Shown piece by piece: positions 501 through 41,500 of a stretch of 64,000 nucleotides of DNA. The notes beneath the pieces are model-generated. The model ran no database searches. It saw nothing but the letters and a program-made list of their open reading frames with translations, and had not been told where the DNA came from. The stretch lies in the NCBI RefSeq assembly GCF_009931435.1, contig NZ_CP043414.1; one strand, 5' to 3'. The DNA comes from Escherichia coli. GTDB lineage: Bacteria; Pseudomonadota; Gammaproteobacteria; Enterobacterales; Enterobacteriaceae. How positions within the stretch are numbered: position 1 is the first letter of the stretch; the number at the start of each line of letters is the position of its first letter. A program made the translations under genes and the position numbers.

Positions 501-626
<126 letters not shown>

Positions 627-835
627 GTACCCACAATAACACGAGGGGGTACAACAATGAACATCGGTAAAGCAATCATCAACTACGCAGCGCGTCGCAA
701 CATGGACATTACCTGATTGACGATGAGACCGTGGCGTTCTGGGAAGCGGATAACGATTGTGAATGGATGTTCTCCTACATGATTGGTAATGATGGTTTCC
801 TCCACTTTAAAGGCAATGTGTATCTGCTGTAGTGG

Positions 836-1656
<821 letters not shown>

Positions 1657-1700
1657 GTTGCATACAACGGCAACAGGAAACCGCGCCCTGAGTTTCTCAA

Positions 1701-2012
<312 letters not shown>

Positions 2013-2088
2013 AATGTCACCTGTTTTTGACTATGAGGCGATGATATCACCTCTATTCAGGTGGCCAAATTCAGTGTGCCACTACAGT

Positions 2089-2265
2089 ATGGCTAAGATG
2101 GAATCAGAGATTAAATCACTTAAAGCTGATAACGCCGCATTACGAAAGAGTTTAAAACTGATTGATGAGACTAATGCGGTTATGATGGATCATGTATTCC
2201 CTGAGTGGCGAAATGAAACTAAACCTACACAATATAAGAAACCTACACTTCGAGTGGTTGCATAA
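2089..2265 (+). CDS. Hypothetical 58-aa coiled-coil protein, possibly a gene fragment truncated by the adjacent IS
   Basis: ATG at 2089 directly abuts the IS end (2086) with no Shine-Dalgarno; reads MAKMESEIKSLKADNAALRKSLKLIDETNAVMMDHVFPEWRNETKPTQYKKPTLRVVA. The listed ORF 2014-2265 begins inside the IS terminus. Confidence 0.3.
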   Translation: MAKMESEIKSLKADNAALRKSLKLIDETNAVMMDHVFPEWRNETKPTQYKKPTLRVVA

Positions 2266-2269
2266 AAAA

Positions 2270-2296
2270 AGGGACTCCGAAGAGTCCCTAGTAAGT
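2270..2296 (-). terminator. Intrinsic terminator (minus strand)
   Basis: Hairpin GGGACTC-TTCG-GAGTCCC followed by a run of seven T on the minus strand. Confidence 0.65.
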
Positions 2297-2371
2297 TTAG
2301 GTTAGGTTTGCACAACAAAGATGAGGTTATAATGAACATAATGCTACATTATTCTTTAAAGCCAGAAAAAT

Positions 2372-2392
2372 AACCGCCCCGAAGGGCGGGAG
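2372..2392 (-). terminator. Intrinsic terminator (minus strand) downstream of the small membrane-protein genes
   Basis: Minus-strand hairpin CCGCCC-TTCG-GGGCGG followed by TTATTTTTCT. Confidence 0.6.
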
Positions 2393-2547
2393 GATTAATA
2401 CTCAATCTATACTTGTTATGTTTTTATGTTGTATAGATCACTGACTATGAAAACACTGTACTGGAGTGTGTTTTATGGCTTTTAATCGGGAATCCTCAAA
2501 GAAGATCCCCTGTTAATAACCATAAGGAGAAAAGGCAGATTACACTA

Positions 2548-2721
2548 TTATTTAGCATCCTTTTTACAGCAACTAAAAAGAATAAACAGGATTAAACATC
2601 CCCAGCCGTAAGGTGTACCAATTAGAAATTTGAAAAACACCACCATCGATATAAAAATCAATTTAATGCCAGCGACGATAGTCAAAAACAGCAGAGTAGC
2701 AAAGTAGACAAAAAGATCCAT
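2548..2721 (-). CDS. Small hydrophobic protein (57 aa, about two TM segments, basic C-terminus); not in ORF track (under 60 aa)
   Basis: Manual translation MDLFVYFATLLFLTIVAGIKLIFISMVVFFKFLIGTPYGWGCLILFILFSCCKKDAK; ATG 2721-2719, TAA stop 2550-2548; co-directional with upstream genes and followed by the terminator at 2372-2392. Confidence 0.45.
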   Translation of the reverse strand: MDLFVYFATLLFLTIVAGIKLIFISMVVFFKFLIGTPYGWGCLILFILFSCCKKDAK

Positions 2722-2770
2722 AGATAATCCTCTTTGAAAACGACCATCATCTATAGTTCAATTCATCGAT

Positions 2771-2953
2771 TTAATTAATGATACTTGAAAGCGTTACACA
2801 CAGCAGAAATGCCAATATGTGCCATGAATATACGATAGTTAATCCTACAGTAAGACAAATCAAAAATTCAACCATAGGTAAATCCTCAAATAAGAAAAAG
2901 GTTAGCGGGGGGTGATTCCCCCCGTAGACGTTGACCAGCTCAACATCTTTCAT
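2771..2953 (-). CDS. Small hydrophobic protein (60 aa, about two TM segments)
   Basis: ORF-track protein MKDVELVNVYGGNHPPLTFFLFEDLPMVEFLICLTVGLTIVYSWHILAFLLCVTLSSIIN; starts 21 nt after the stop of the Nu1-like gene. Confidence 0.5.
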   Translation of the reverse strand: MKDVELVNVYGGNHPPLTFFLFEDLPMVEFLICLTVGLTIVYSWHILAFLLCVTLSSIIN

Positions 2954-2973
2954 ACATTTATTTATAACGCGTT

Positions 2974-3525
2974 TTAAGACACATCAAATTCATCGTCTTC
3001 TTCTGGTTCTTGTTCCGGTTCATCCATTAATGGTAATTCTTCTTCCTCGTCTTCTCCCAAATCAGCATTTTCGAACAAGTCCCCTACTTCATTTAAACGA
3101 AGCTCGATGATCTCCCTTAGCTTATTCTTCAATGTTTTCTGATCAGTGGCGGATTCTAAAATTTCTAGGGCATCGATTGTGGCGATCTGCAAGATAGTCT
3201 GCTTCACCTTCCCACAATATTCAGCTAGTTCCTGTTCTACATACCCGACCGGAATCAGGAGATTCATTGCTTCCTGGTTCTCTCGTTCGGCTGCATCTGC
3301 TAATGCTCTCTCACGGCGTAATTTCTCTACGTCGATTTGTTCCTTGATAGAAGTTTCTTTAAGCGGGTTAATGATGTTCTTCAAGACCCAATCACACCCA
3401 GGCTTCGCCGGGACACGTCTTGTATTTGTGTTATAAGGTAGACCCCTTTCTAACCATTTCTTAGCGGCGTTAATTGTATAGCCGTATAAGCGGGAAATTT
3501 CTGTAAGGGTTAATTCTTCTTTCAT
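2974..3525 (-). CDS. Putative DNA-binding protein resembling phage terminase small subunit Nu1 (N-terminal winged HTH, acidic C-terminal tail); orphan, no large terminase nearby
   Basis: Translation MKEELTLTEISRLYGYTINAAKKWLERGLPYNT...EKLRRERALADAAERE...DEEEELPLMDEPEQEPEEDDEFDVS has the layout of lambda gpNu1 as recalled. Start set at the second ATG (3525) because a GGAGG lies about 9 nt upstream; the listed ORF begins at 3540. Confidence 0.55.
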   Translation of the reverse strand: MKEELTLTEISRLYGYTINAAKKWLERGLPYNTNTRRVPAKPGCDWVLKNIINPLKETSIKEQIDVEKLRRERALADAAERENQEAMNLLIPVGYVEQELAEYCGKVKQTILQIATIDALEILESATDQKTLKNKLREIIELRLNEVGDLFENADLGEDEEEELPLMDEPEQEPEEDDEFDVS

Positions 3526-3886
3526 CCGGTTATCCTCCATTAAATTTGCGTAAAATTATTTATCTGATCTACGCATTCAGGAGAGCGCCTAAAACGCTTT
3601 CTAACGACATGAAAGATCTAGGCGTGGAAAGGAATTGGCGGGTGTTAATAGTCGCGTAGCGACCGCGCTGGTGGGCTGCACTGCACCTGTTTTGAAATCT
3701 CACACGCACATCAAATACCGGGGTGCCGAAAACTCCCTTTATTTCATCCGCGGAACAGTACCTTTTTAATTTGTCAAGCATTAATTTCTTAATTTAATTA
3801 CTAAATCTCACCCCAATAATTGAAAAAATATCAAAAATCAATAAAGTAAGCATCTAAAAGTCAGTCCATACCAAAAGAGGTATAAA

Positions 3887-4666
3887 ATGAAAAACATTAT
3901 CGCTGCTATCGTGCTTTCTGCTACTGCTTTCGGTGCTGATGCTGCGTCCTTTGATTGCACTAAGGCTATAACCAAATCAGAGAAGTTTATTTGTGCTAAT
4001 GAGTCAATCTCCGCACTGGATTCTAAACTTCATGAAGTATATGTTAAGGCTGTTAAGATTGATCCGTCTCTTAAACAAGAGCAACGCAACTGGAATAAAA
4101 CTGTTCGTGATACAATGATCAATATCGGGCAGATTCAGCCACTGGAGGCTGTATACAACGCTCAAATCCAAAACTTGATGAATGTATTATCTAAAGAAGA
4201 AACCGCGTCAGAGAGCGTTACAGATGATTCTGCAAAGGTTGAAGAAGAACAACCGAAACAGGAAGAAGTAAAGAAACTGAATGTTACCGCGATTTACGCA
4301 TGTACTGCAAAATTTACATGGAAAGTTATCGATGGTGAGGAAACAGAAGCTGTAAAAGATTACTTATACGGAAACAAAGATCATGATGATAAAGGCGGTA
4401 AACTTAAAATCAAACTGGTAGATGATGTTCCTGTGTATTTTGTTTACACCGACAAATATAACGTTTATAAATCACCACTCAAACCAGCTAAAGAAAATCC
4501 AAACGCAATGGAGGGTAAATCCAAACAGGATACTATTGGACGTGTTAACACTTATAACATCTGGGTAAGCAAAAAAGGTGACATGCGTCTTGAAGTTATT
4601 GAACCAAAATATGATTCTGAATATAAACACACTCAATTTGCATGTGACATGGTAGACGCAGAGTAA
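3887..4666 (+). CDS. Secreted/periplasmic protein with N-terminal DUF1311 (LprI-like lysozyme-inhibitor fold) domain and an uncharacterised C-terminal domain
   Basis: Signal peptide MKNIIAAIVLSATAFGADA; motif FDCTKAITKSEKFICANESISALDSKLHEVY typical of DUF1311; acidic linker; Shine-Dalgarno AGAGG 8 nt upstream. Confidence 0.75.
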   Translation: MKNIIAAIVLSATAFGADAASFDCTKAITKSEKFICANESISALDSKLHEVYVKAVKIDPSLKQEQRNWNKTVRDTMINIGQIQPLEAVYNAQIQNLMNVLSKEETASESVTDDSAKVEEEQPKQEEVKKLNVTAIYACTAKFTWKVIDGEETEAVKDYLYGNKDHDDKGGKLKIKLVDDVPVYFVYTDKYNVYKSPLKPAKENPNAMEGKSKQDTIGRVNTYNIWVSKKGDMRLEVIEPKYDSEYKHTQFACDMVDAE

Positions 4667-5226
4667 GAGGTGAAATGATGCAATTCAATAGCATGAAGAT
4701 TACTCAAAAATGGTGGGATGCGATGAAAGCTAACCACCAGAACGATATTAATTAAGTAACATTTTAGATATACAGCACCCAGCTAACAGATCACCTTTTA
4801 TGGATTTCATTATAACCCCTTTGATCTGGAAACTATGTTAATTAGTTGATTTCTAAGCCTTGTCCTTGTGATGGGGCTTTTTATTGCAAAATTTTTAGTT
4901 ATTTTGGGTTGACTACATTCGGGTTGCCAATTCGCCTGGCTAACTCTTGCTGAGTGATTTCTGACTGTAAAAAAGCATTTAACAGCAATACCTTAGAGGC
5001 GACGCTCAAAGGCACTTCAATAAAGTGATCGTGACTATTTAATGGCGAAGTTTACCTCCGTGTGTAATGTGCTCGAAAATAGCACTAAATCGCCGCAACG
5101 GCAGAATGCAATGCAAAATCAGGAAGGAAGATTCCAGAATTTCTTTGCGCTAATTTGCAAAACTGAATAATAACCTCAAGAAACGATCGGCATCATAGCG
5201 GCAAAAGGTCAGAAAAAGGTGGCGGG

Positions 5227-5457: not shown

Positions 5458-5467
5458 GTCGTATGAT

Positions 5468-5497
5468 GCCGGATGCGGCGTGACGCCTTACCCGGCC
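5468..5497. repeat. REP (repetitive extragenic palindromic) element
   Basis: GCCGGATGCGGCGTGACGCCTTACCCGGCC between convergent yncJ and ydcP. Confidence 0.6.
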
Positions 5498-37463: not shown

Positions 37464-38324
37464 TTATTCTCGCGAAATACCATCCAACGTAGACAACACG
37501 TCCGCAGAAAGATGCAATTTTTCAGCAGCCATATTCTCCCGTAAATGCGCAACAGAAGATGTTCCAGGAATCAACAAAATATTCGGTGAACGTTGTAACA
37601 GCCACGCCAGCGCTACCTGCATTGGTGTCGCATTAAGGCTCGCAGCAACATCGGAAAGCGTGGAGGATTGCAGCGGCGTAAAGCCCCCGAGCGGGAAGAA
37701 CGGCACGTAGGCAATGCCGTCACGAGCCAAAGCATCAATCATTGCGTCATCAGCACGATGAGCAATGTTGTATTCGTTCTGCACGCAGACGATTTCGGCA
37801 ATCTTGCGTGCCTCTGCAACCTGCGTCGGTGTGACGTTGCTCAGGCCAATATGTTTTACCAGGCCTTGTTGTCGCATCTCTGCCAGCACGGTCAGGCTGG
37901 CTTCAATCGATCCTTCCGCTGGGCCATGACCATCCCCCATCATAACGCGCAGGTTGACCACATCCAGTACGTCCAGTCCGAGATTACGTAGATTATCGTG
38001 TACCGCTTTTTGCAACTCTGCCGGAGAAAATGCGGGCAACCAGGAGGCGTCCTCTCCACGCCGCGCCCCAATTTTAGTAACAATGGTCAGGTCGTCAGAG
38101 TAAGGATAAAGCGCTTCGCGGATAATCTGATTGGTGACGTGTGGACCATAAAAGTCACTGGTATCAATGTGATTAACGCCTAATGCCAGCGCCTCGCGCA
38201 GCACGGTTATAGCGACGTGGCGATCCCTTGGGGGACCAAAAACTCCAGGACCTGCCAGTTGCATCGCGCCATAACCAAGACGGTTAACGGATTTTGTACC
38301 GAGAGTAAATGTGTTGCTGCTCAT
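37464..38324 (-). CDS. ydbC: Aldo-keto reductase YdbC (PdxI, pyridoxine 4-dehydrogenase)
   Basis: 286-aa AKR-family ORF. Confidence 0.9.
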   Translation of the reverse strand: MSSNTFTLGTKSVNRLGYGAMQLAGPGVFGPPRDRHVAITVLREALALGVNHIDTSDFYGPHVTNQIIREALYPYSDDLTIVTKIGARRGEDASWLPAFSPAELQKAVHDNLRNLGLDVLDVVNLRVMMGDGHGPAEGSIEASLTVLAEMRQQGLVKHIGLSNVTPTQVAEARKIAEIVCVQNEYNIAHRADDAMIDALARDGIAYVPFFPLGGFTPLQSSTLSDVAASLNATPMQVALAWLLQRSPNILLIPGTSSVAHLRENMAAEKLHLSADVLSTLDGISRE

Positions 38325-38478
38325 CGCACCCTGCCCTGTAATAAAACGGATTAAGAAAAATCAGTATAGAAACGAAAAGAGTTAAATAATGCGAAGGCGT
38401 AAACAAGATTACTGGATGAGTTGCTCTATTGTCCTGAAAAACACCAAAACAAAACGCGTCAAGCGCCGCATCCGGCAA

Positions 38479-38511
38479 TAAAAAACCGCAACCTGTATCA
38501 GCGTTGCGGTT
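38479..38511 (-). terminator. Intrinsic terminator downstream of ydbA
   Basis: Minus-strand hairpin AACCGCAAC-loop-GTTGCGGTT followed by TTTTTT; an adjacent REP-like GCCGGATGCGGCG half-site at about 38462-38477. Confidence 0.75.
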
Positions 38512-38531
38512 TATGCATCACATACTAAAAA

Positions 38532-41500
38532 TTAGAACGTTTTCTTGAAGTTCAGCATCACGCCTTTATCGCTGATACCATCCTCTTTCCAGTGGTAAGC
38601 ATCCAGATTCAGCGAACTTTCTTTGCTGCTGTACTTCACGCCGACGCTTGCCAGACTGTTGATGCCGCCGCCCTTCTGCCCATCATCGACATTAAAGTGC
38701 TGGCTGCCTGCGCCTGCCAGGCTTGCCGTGCGCTGGCTCTTGCTGTAGCTGAGGTTCGGCCCACCTTCCAGCGTGGCGTTCGCACTCCAGCCGTCTTTCC
38801 CTGCGTAGTCCAGCTTCAGCCCGACGATGCTGTCCACCGCCGTTTCGCTGCCGCTGTTCATGCTCAGGTTAAAGTCTCCGGCATTGCGCTCCTGATAGTC
38901 GCCTTCCAGCGTGTGACGCAGTTTCACACCCGCATATGGCGTGATTTTCAGCCCTTCGCGCGGTTCAAAGGTTTTCGCCCCTTCGCTGCGGAACTCCAGG
39001 TACTGTTGTTTCACATTCGTGTCTGCCGTCTTACTGATGTCGCCGTAAGCCACCGAACGGCTGCTGTCCAGTTGGTGAATATCGTAGCGCAGCGCGTTAT
39101 TCCAGCTCATACCGTTGTCAAAGGACATCTGATGCTTCAGGCCAAAGAACTGGCTGTAGCCGCCTGTAACACCATTATCACCCGCTTTCTGCGCACCATC
39201 GCCGTCCAGACGGGCGATACCGTACTCCAGGCTCATGGTCTGGTTTTCGCTCAGGTCGAGGGTTTTGCGCAGCGCCAGCATGTCGTACTCGGTATTATTC
39301 CCCAGCTCTGCACGCGGATCGCCTTTCGCCACCACGTTAAATGCCAGACCGTTGCCCATCTTCGGTGCTGCGTCTGCCAGCATACTAAAGCGATTGCTTA
39401 ACACACGCGCTTCGCGGAATACCGTGGTCGCCTGGCTACCGCTAATTTGCTTAAGTGCGCTGTTCAGCTCTGCAGTGGTGCCGACGTTCAGACTGGTATA
39501 CAGCTCATTGTTGGTGTAACCCGCATCCAGCGCTTTTGCCACGTCATTCACTGAGGCATCCGTCGCCACATCGGTGTAGGCTTTTTTGCTCATGGTCACG
39601 TCAACGTTGCCGCTGGCGTCGGTACTGCCTGTCGCCTGCCAGACAACAGATGTCGAAGTGATCGCTTGCGCATCGGTCAGGTTGCTGCCTTGCACCACAT
39701 CATCAAAGCTGGCGGTTTTGTCCGCCGTTCCCGCCGCAAAAGCAGTGTTGATCTCCACGCCTTTCATACTGGCGTTATTGACCATCAGCTTACCAGCGCT
39801 ACCATCGGCGTTCGTCCCCACCACGTAACCATTGAGGTTGTTCATGCCATCGTTGCGGCTAACGGAAGAAGAATGACTGTCGTCGTATGGCGTAATGGTG
39901 GGTTCTTCCGGCGCGGTAAAGTCGACATAGTGTACTTCCGTACCGTCTCCCCCTTCACCACTGCCCTCCATCACCGTGCCAGATTGTTTAATTAATCCGG
40001 AACCATTCACGCTGTCGTCAATATAAACAGTGCCGTTGTTAACAATATGACCATTGCTCCCGAGCTTGCTGAAGGCATATGAATTGCTGGCATATATATT
40101 GATGGTGCCGTTATTCTCAATCACCGCATCAGCCGTGGCATCGGATTCCAGTTGCATCCCTACCATGCCTGTCCTGGTAGTTCCTTGCGTGCCAACGTTA
40201 ATGGTGCCGTTGTTGATCATTTTGGCTTTACCGTGCGCCGACATCGCCACATTACTATTTTTGTCGATATTAATAATGCCGTCGTTTATTGCCTTGCTGG
40301 CCGTGTTTGATGTCAGGATCTGCCCGTTGATGAAGCCAGACTGGCCATTATAGAACGTATGCCCATCACCACCGGTGCTAATTCTCATGTCACCTTCTAC
40401 TGTCCCCCAATTATTAAAATGTCCTGTCCACAGCGCATTCGTCGCCACCGTTGCCACACTGCCTTCCAGATTGTTGAAGGTGCCACCTTTATCAACCGAT
40501 GCATTATTTACGGTACCAGCATTATTAAAGGTAGAGGCTGCAGCAAAAGTTATTTTCTCTACTTTTCCACCGGCCTGATTATTCATTACGGCAGACCCGG
40601 AAGAACCTTTCCAGGCGTTCACCGTTCCGGTGTTATAAAAATTGCTGGCCCACTGGTCAACCGTGTTGATGCTGCCTGAGTTGTGAATAACCGATCCTGC
40701 AACAGTCGTTCCGACTTGCCCGCTCACCGTACCTTCGTTAGTGAACACGCCGCCATCCACAGAAACAGTTTTTGTCGTGCCGTGGTTGGTGTATTCCCCA
40801 CCGGTTGCGATATCAACCTCAATAATACTGCCCGTGGTTTCATTGACCAGATGACCAAAGTCAGCCACGGTGACAGGTCCCCCGGTGACCGTACCCGTGT
40901 TTGTTACCAGGGTTTCGGCGGTTGCCGTGATATCAGTAGTACCGCCATATGAATACAGGTTAAGCGTTTCCCCGTCAGCCGAAATAATGTCACCATTTCT
41001 CCAGCTTAATGAAACAAACCCGTCAGTCGGGTTATAGGCGTTATTGTCCTGGCATTTCCCAAAAGTACAGATGGATCCGTAATTAACGATAGTCCCGCTG
41101 CCATCGTTATAGAACGCCTGCCCGTTTTCAGCATTAATATTGATGATGCCCGTCTGATCATTAATCGCAGTGGCACCATTGTAAACAGCCATGCCGACCA
41201 ATTTATTTGGCCCCAGCGTATCATCATCATTTTCATTTACTTCCAGATTTATAGTTCCCTGGTTAATAATAATGTTACCTGGCTTCATCGCAGCCATACC
41301 GGCACCGGAATTATAGAGTGTTATTTCACCACCCTGCTGGTTAATGGCGGTAGAATTAACGCTGGCACCAGAACTGTCTGTACCCACAGCCATCCCGACA
41401 GCATAATCTTTGGCGCTGTCATGAGCGATATTGGACGCCAGACTGGAAGTATCGTTTTCATCAACCCATAATGCGTCAATGAAAATCTTACCCATATTGT

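Follow-up and report, generated by a model that had tools for sequence, protein, structure and literature searches.

A candidate terminase recognition region upstream of the TerS gene in a hicB prophage remnant of Escherichia coli

The conserved non-coding DNA directly upstream of a terminase small-subunit (TerS) gene in a prophage remnant of Escherichia coli, at positions 3526-3782 of the window (the whole stretch of DNA that was analysed, 64,000 nucleotides long), is probably the cosB-like terminase recognition (cos/pac) region of a family of prophages found in hicB or ycdX. We hold this reading with moderate confidence, and according to it the same DNA would also contain the TerS promoter. 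It is proposed because the pattern observed in the family matches the one that governs packaging specificity in phage lambda as compared with phage 21. A region of this type is an ordinary phage feature; what is new is an uncharacterised member of a kind that is already well known.

As a mechanism we propose that TerS would bind, through its N-terminal winged-helix domain, a short direct repeat (E5, 3674-3687) together with three GCGT-core sites (3547-3600), and that TerS bound in this way would position a gpA-type large terminase (TerL) for a nearby cut. This cut would be made at one of two GC-rich dyads (3651-3663 or 3720-3737), from which packaging would begin, an arrangement that would do the work of lambda cosB and cosN together. 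The conserved TTGACA hexamer at 3772-3777 would be the candidate TerS promoter within the same region. The data themselves show where the element lies, how it is conserved, that RNA and ORF signals are absent, that the block is exchanged as a module and that the class of the TerS helix agrees with that of the DNA; binding by TerS, the site of the cut, the use as cos or as pac and the use of the promoter are the parts of this scheme that we infer.

The remnant prophage, its intact relatives and its TerS protein

The island lies in the ydc-hicAB-yncJ-rlhA region of the E. coli chromosome, where two fragments of hicB flank a frameshifted IS3-family element, unannotated DNA, a TerS-like gene and a gene for an LprI/DUF1311 protein (Table 1). 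The window agrees with NZ_ABACVG020000001 at 100% identity. Other E. coli strains (O55:H7 DEC5A and others) carry at this position in hicB a prophage of ~35 kb that appears to be complete. Its genes encode a large serine recombinase, a large terminase of the gpA type, and portal, capsid, tail and lysis proteins; the window shows the IS3 element in place of ~30 kb of this prophage. The island is a prophage remnant from which an IS3-associated deletion took about 30 kb; insertion of the element and the deletion associated with it removed TerL, portal, capsid and tail. The only survivors between the two halves of hicB are TerS, the DNA upstream of it and the LprI cargo. Because the genes for TerL and the capsid are gone, the conserved element is a fossil in the window strain.

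The ~35-kb family integrates into hicB or ycdX by means of its large serine recombinase. In the intact relatives, TerS is the last backbone gene, followed by a cargo gene and then by attR, so placed at the extreme right end of the prophage, and about 6 kb with regulatory-looking genes separate it from TerL. Among the genes from TerS to TerL in four relatives (L003 7800-43100 and L040-L042), Pfam and PHROGs revealed no recognisable replication gene or CI/Cro-type repressor, a pRha/Ant-like regulator being the only product recognised. One of these intact relatives (L003, NZ_CP038394) also contains, between divergent gene groups, a stretch of 1.27 kb without annotated genes (37590-38863). This stretch holds an iteron-like array at 38186-38298 with at least five copies of TAGTGTAGGTTT at a spacing of 11 or 22 bp, which could be an origin or an operator array, and it has been deleted from the window.

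The 183-aa TerS protein matches phrog_57 ('terminase small subunit') over its full length (E 4.4e-13), and its start is placed by RefSeq at 3525 (MKEEL...). An AF2 model (pLDDT 75) shows a helix-turn-helix at residues 7-26 and a wing at residues 37-39, with a winged-helix domain for DNA binding at the N-terminus that is followed by long helices and by an acidic tail without order; residues 18-26 are predicted from this model to be the recognition helix. A Foldseek search with TerS returned no match at E <= 0.001, the top matches, all of them weak, being MerR winged helix-turn-helix proteins, the DNA-binding domain of gpNu1 (1j9i) and excisionases, so that the likeness of the N-terminal domain to gpNu1 is weak; a comparison of the TerS sequence with the PDB gave no meaningful match. 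The TerL of the intact relatives consists of GpA_ATPase and GpA_nuclease domains (PF05876, PF20454). The nearest TerL in the phage collection, at 43% identity, is encoded at the start of PQ671644.1 (1-9000; L039), a 141-kb record filed under Straboviridae whose first genes resemble a head module of the siphovirus type. This record may be a chimeric assembly, and for this reason it was of no help as a source of known genome ends.

Conservation and anatomy of the region upstream of TerS

The gap between the TerS and LprI genes spans exactly 3526-3886 (360 bp), as the first-pass annotation had it, TerS starting at 3525 and LprI at 3887. Of 5426 complete E. coli genomes, 60 contain its sequence, essentially as one copy in each, and in 29 of the 30 genomes among the matches listed RefSeq leaves it free of annotated features. 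INPHARED contains no relative, either by the DNA of the gap or by the TerS protein, and the literature on hicB-integrating prophages yielded nothing relevant. For the comparison, 23 IMG/VR proviruses were used together with loci chosen from 76 TerS protein clusters, and these loci represent E. coli, Salmonella and Proteus as well as metagenomes, the most divergent TerS among them being 54% identical. Every one of them shows 290-480 bp of non-coding DNA directly upstream of TerS, followed by divergent genes and then by the host junction, which is hicB or, in many loci, ycdX; the divergent genes are variable and of no recognised function.

Only 3526-3782 is conserved throughout the family, in E. 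coli, Salmonella and Proteus alike. Ten motifs, E1 to E10 (Table 1), keep their order from E. coli through Salmonella to Proteus while TerS identity falls to 54%, and the element is present as a single copy per prophage. Homology between loci with different cargo ends at about 3783. The gap has two parts: 3526-3782 is part of the phage backbone and remains with TerS under any cargo, even under none (L046), and 3783-3886 is part of the exchangeable LprI moron or cargo.

The slot between the region upstream of TerS and attR (window 3783-4919; L027 3403-3708, L033 2638-3524, L029 2918-3601, L032 2978-3592) is a hot spot for cargo. Some members carry LprI/DUF1311 there and in L046 it is empty; others hold unrelated proteins of 76-342 aa without a Pfam family. 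In addition, Salmonella and some E. coli members (L029, L036, L033, L034) present an extra conserved stretch ~60-100 bp upstream of CTTGACA. This stretch, which is absent from the window type, is rich in TGACC/GGTCA inverted repeats (TTATATTGATGACCGGA...TGTCAA..GGTCAA.TCATTGATT.TGACCG).

Table 1. Features of the hicB island and of the conserved element, in window coordinates
Feature	Positions	Strand	Remarks
hicB fragments	501-620 and 4920-5048		flank the island inside hicB (501-5048)
IS3-family element, frameshifted	836-2012		between the hicB fragments
Unannotated DNA, about 1 kb			between the IS3-family element and the 183-aa gene
TerS-like gene, 183 aa	2974-3525	minus	between the hicB fragments
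Shine-Dalgarno GGAGGA of TerS	3531-3536	minus	read from the sequence; (G/A)GAGGA kept in all homologues
E10: inverted repeat TGCGTA-N17-TACGCA	3547-3575	.	A/T-rich spacer with TAAATA; 22-50 bp upstream of the TerS ATG
E9: AAAGCGTTTTAGGCGC	3585-3600	minus	third GCGT-core site; direct repeat of the E10 left arm, ~22-24 bp off
E7 CCTTTCC and E8 CGCCTAGATCTTTC	3611-3632	minus	E8 is CTAGATCTTTC when listed in minus-strand order
E6: core TTAATAGTCGCGTAGCGACCGC	3646-3666	.	with the palindrome GTCGC-GTA-GCGAC (GGTCGCTACGCGAC inside)
E5: period-5 direct repeat G-TGCAG-TGCAG-CC	3674-3687	minus	given as TGCAGTGCAG in the first-pass annotation
E4: GTGCGTGTGAGATTTCAAAAC	3689-3709		minus-strand order; between E3 and E5
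E3: GC-rich dyad GGGAGTTTTCGGCACCCC	3720-3737	.	between an A-tract and a T-tract; second candidate cut site
E2: AGGT(A/T)CT	3756-3764	minus	8-10 nt after CTTGACA
E1: CTTGACA after an A-rich stretch	3772-3778	minus	hexamer TTGACA at 3772-3777; perfect -35-like
LprI leader, AT-rich	3783-3886	plus	promoter-like TTGAAA-16-TAAAGT at 3820-3847; Shine-Dalgarno AAGAGG before the ATG at 3887
LprI/DUF1311 gene	3887-4666		between the hicB fragments

The patch at 3596-3760 had been described as GC-rich, which is true in comparison with its flanks (GC 0.509, against 0.386 for 3526-3595 and 0.246 for 3761-3886) but not with the genome, to whose average it is close (0.484 for the whole window). The hairpin GTCGC-GTA-GCGAC at 3651-3663 and the direct repeat GGCTGCACTGCACC at 3674-3687 are both present as reported. 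A 5-bp hairpin is unremarkable alone, and it is through conservation across the prophage family that the motifs of the patch exceed chance.

On the side nearest to TerS, all 16 aligned homologues have the GCG/CGC cores of the inverted repeat E10 unchanged, and 7 of 11 representatives show an inverted repeat in matching alignment columns. The direct repeat formed by E9 and E10 recurs in 5 of the 11, at the column pairs 202-205 and 226-229. In this way, three GCGT-core sites are arranged about two helical turns apart within 3547-3600, two of them direct and one inverted. E8 and E9 also form an imperfect 14-bp dyad, and the sequence of E8/E7 varies with the class of TerS. A shorter core of E6, GCGGTCGCTACGCGAC, is identical across the class A loci, including those of Salmonella, the flanking TTAATA and CGC bases being variable there; several class B loci have another dyad in this position, GCTC-N6-GAGC. 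E6 is a candidate nicking or dyad site.

At the distal end, E1 and E2 are kept in all E. coli and Salmonella members and are absent from the Proteus member. They could be the TerS promoter, which would then be activator-dependent, or a boundary element similar to cosQ. Like E10, they occur once per prophage: a scripted motif search found no extra copies of E1/E2 or of E10 elsewhere in the prophage, and a late-promoter motif common to the prophage was discarded on these grounds.

The first-pass annotation had also suggested an operator array controlling the divergent genes. The array survives as a dense set of conserved DNA repeats and dyads of a protein-binding kind, and the idea of operators was right in spirit; the shared control does not survive. 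Since homology stops at ~3783 and the cargo varies there, the patch is not a control region common to the two divergent genes, and since different cargo, or none, replaces LprI past that point, the conserved part belongs to the TerS side only.

Exchange of the TerS-DNA block and the readings that compete to explain it

The core of the conserved region is exchanged between prophages together with the beginning of the TerS gene. In comparison with a locus that has the same LprI flank (L043), the window diverges over 3294-3733 (45-80% identity), and the identity of the flanks is 85-100% towards TerS and 97-100% towards LprI. In comparison with L010, the divergent block covers 3454-3693. The exchanged block has its left end at ~3693-3733, in the E3/E4 zone (3689-3737) that contains the left recombination breakpoints, crosses the patch and reaches into the TerS gene, where it takes in the first 24-77 codons. 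L027 encodes a mosaic TerS: over the first 60 alignment columns it shares 80% identity with class B, its C-terminal part shares 96% with the window, and the DNA upstream of it is that of class B. Moreover, the cargo flanks LprI and a 101-aa protein are each found with all three central classes.

These classes can be read both in the protein and in the DNA. TerS proteins fall into three classes, AAKKW, GG(G/A)KRW and AV(Q/T/N)KW, which differ precisely in the helix of residues 18-26, and the pentamers of E5 fall into three as well: TGCAG-TGCAG, TCACT-TCACT (or CAGTGCAGT) and TT(T/A/C)AG-TTAA(G/C). When AAKKW is paired with TGCAG, GGxKRW with TCACT and AVxKW with TTWAG, the class of the helix equals the class of the pentamer in all 32 of the 32 loci with distinct upstream sequence. 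Most of the class-diagnostic alignment columns fall within E5, and its two pentamers change in concert between classes, as would be expected if two copies of one protein recognised the site. E5 is the leading candidate for the target of the recognition helix of TerS. TerL identities (57-80%) sort with neither the E6 nor the E3 class, and because the type of TerL tracks no sub-element, the cut site is not assignable to one dyad.

That the variable core follows the DNA-binding domain of TerS points to terminase recognition rather than to transcriptional operators, even though the match of helix and DNA would suit any DNA-binding role of that domain. The region might then serve transcription control only, as the promoter of the TerS operon with operators bound by TerS or by the pRha/Ant-like regulator, the packaging site lying elsewhere. 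A promoter for TerS must indeed lie in the region, because the gene upstream is divergent; the TTGACA hexamer is perfect, conserved and preceded by an A-rich stretch, and the inverted repeat at 3547-3575 is placed like an operator near the ribosome-binding site. However, no member has a -10 element at a spacing of 16-18 bp from this hexamer, the minus strand yielded no sigma-70 call in a promoter scan, and a series of conserved motifs kept in order over ~250 bp far exceeds what a promoter and one operator would take up. The confinement of the motifs to this one place in the prophage speaks against a common late-promoter motif, and co-evolution of TerS with cosB is established (PMC4669245). With these points on the two sides, a role in transcription control only is considered unlikely, though it is the alternative that fares best.

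Autoregulation by a TerS of the Nu1 type is, to our knowledge, not an established mechanism.

Simple linkage could also yield the association of helix and DNA under mosaic recombination, the two sequences being physically adjacent. If linkage alone explained it, the region might have no current function and be decaying DNA of a dead prophage, whose motifs reflect nothing but ancestry and mosaic recombination, and the state of the strain's remnant, devoid of TerL and structural genes, would agree with this. Nevertheless, the order of the motifs is kept across apparently intact ~35-kb prophages of three genera in which the sequence between motifs falls to ~50%, and a concerted change of both E5 pentamers is hard to obtain without selection, so an absence of function appears improbable.

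It had further been proposed that the patch is structured, as a 5' leader or a small RNA, and here the data point the other way. An RNA could in principle act as the 5' leader of TerS transcripts, in antitermination, or as an antisense or small RNA: a transcription start near 3745 would place the patch in a leader of ~215 nt, and the GC hairpin at 3720-3737, flanked by A/T tracts, remains a hairpin in several members despite changes in its sequence and overlaps a weak terminator-like call on the plus strand (3720-3736). This compensatory-looking hairpin was rejected as evidence of RNA, being destroyed in L016, L043 and L044. On neither strand does the minimum free energy depart from that of dinucleotide shuffles (z of +0.09 for 3526-3782, minus strand, and of -0.07 for 3596-3760, plus strand). 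The consensus that RNAalifold builds from 16 homologues has an energy of -2.2 kcal/mol, to which covariation contributes -0.16, essentially nothing, and the sole helix retained is the TGCG/CGCA inverted repeat. Rfam had no match in the gap when the first 12 kb of the window were searched at E <= 1, nor in an intact relative at E <= 0.1, and a scan for tRNA and tmRNA was negative. Indels are tolerated throughout the gap. A structured RNA is thus held to be very unlikely, and the best reading is that the conserved region works as double-stranded DNA and not as RNA.

The sole Rfam match in the window was a sub-threshold one to naRNA4 at 5461-5497 on the minus strand (29 bits, with a gathering score of 59.5). 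It is a palindrome of the REP type between yncJ and rlhA, an ordinary REP sequence of E. coli.

As for coding, the 70-aa minus-strand ORF at 3569-3781 starts with ATG and has 70 open codons in the window, but it has next to no chance of being a real small protein gene: its ATG is preceded by ATTAAATTAAGAAATTA and lacks a Shine-Dalgarno sequence, as had been pointed out, it has no Pfam or PHROG match, RefSeq marks no feature there in the 29 genomes mentioned above, only 29 aa of it are left in relatives at 87-90% identity, L011 has lost its start codon, and L023, L014, L027 and more distant members do not have it at all. The earlier doubt about this ORF was therefore well placed, neither reading frame nor start being conserved in homologues. 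A 44-aa ORF was set aside as well, for it is not kept in relatives and has no Pfam or PHROG match.

Comparison with known packaging systems

In lambda and phage 21, specificity resides in the recognition helix of TerS and in the R sites of cosB, the rest of the terminase being interchangeable (PMC4669245). The cosB region contains three R sequences, one of them inverted, and these lie beside cosN, immediately ahead of the TerS gene (PMC4669245). The hicB/ycdX family resembles this arrangement in several respects: ~200-250 bp of non-coding DNA lie directly upstream of a TerS gene of the Nu1 type, the large terminase of the intact relatives is of the gpA type, several short repeats, one of them inverted, are present as candidate TerS sites, and GC-rich dyads are found 130-200 bp upstream of the TerS ATG. 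As in lambda and 21, the recognition helix of TerS and the adjacent DNA co-vary and the remainder of TerS is exchangeable, linkage being a possible cause of this co-variation. In the hicB/ycdX family the block is exchanged independently of its flanks.

There are also clear differences. The repeats of the element are unlike the R sites of lambda, and the position of TerS, ~6 kb from TerL and at the prophage end beside attR, is unusual for lambda-type terminases. The IHF consensus WATCARNNNNTTR, which in lambda lies between R sites, has no exact match on either strand in 14 members. A search for a 12-nt 5' cohesive end like that of lambda (GGGCGGCGACCT) gave a best match with 4 of 12 mismatches, which was equalled by 220 of 500 shuffles. 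When IMG/VR was scanned with a 16-nt core, known family members and probable chance matches were recovered, and no contig ends in the region. The region could even be a pac site, and it does not fall into the group with lambda-like cohesive ends.

Phage N15 has a 'simple' cosB with a single critical site, R3, and the architecture of cosB varies among terminases of the Nu1 type (PMC4669245). E5 could act in a comparable way, as a single specificity site near the position of R3, although the two show no sequence similarity and three conserved GCGT-core sites are present here near the TerS start as well. A third comparison is offered by the Gram-negative phage-inducible chromosomal islands (cos, Rpp), with which the remnant would share the presence of a packaging site in a chromosomal element unable to make its own capsids; the Rpp structure 6hlk is among the weak fold matches of TerS. 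Unlike these islands, the remnant encodes a TerS that is full-length and belongs to the family found in the intact prophages, and hallmarks of such islands, for instance alpA, pri-rep or an integrase, are missing from the window.

A more speculative idea, to which we give little chance, is that the remnant could be a minimal hitch-hiker, in which the terminase of an intact infecting phage that shares both the family and the TerS class, or a mixed TerS complex, would package from the chromosomal site and transduce adjacent host DNA, the TerS-site block being a freely swapping specificity cassette. If this were true, the hitch-hiker would act like a cos island or by lateral transduction, and the N-terminal domain of TerS together with the site block would set packaging incompatibility groups within the prophage family.

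For the biology of the host, the terminase recognition region proposed here would have little consequence in this strain, its prophage being dead. If the reading is correct, a recurrent unannotated stretch of complete E. coli genomes would gain an annotation as a packaging site, and the family would provide a clean case from nature in which the DNA-binding domain of TerS and its site are exchanged jointly. The most useful product of the analysis is a testable pairing, that of three helix classes with three pentamer classes.
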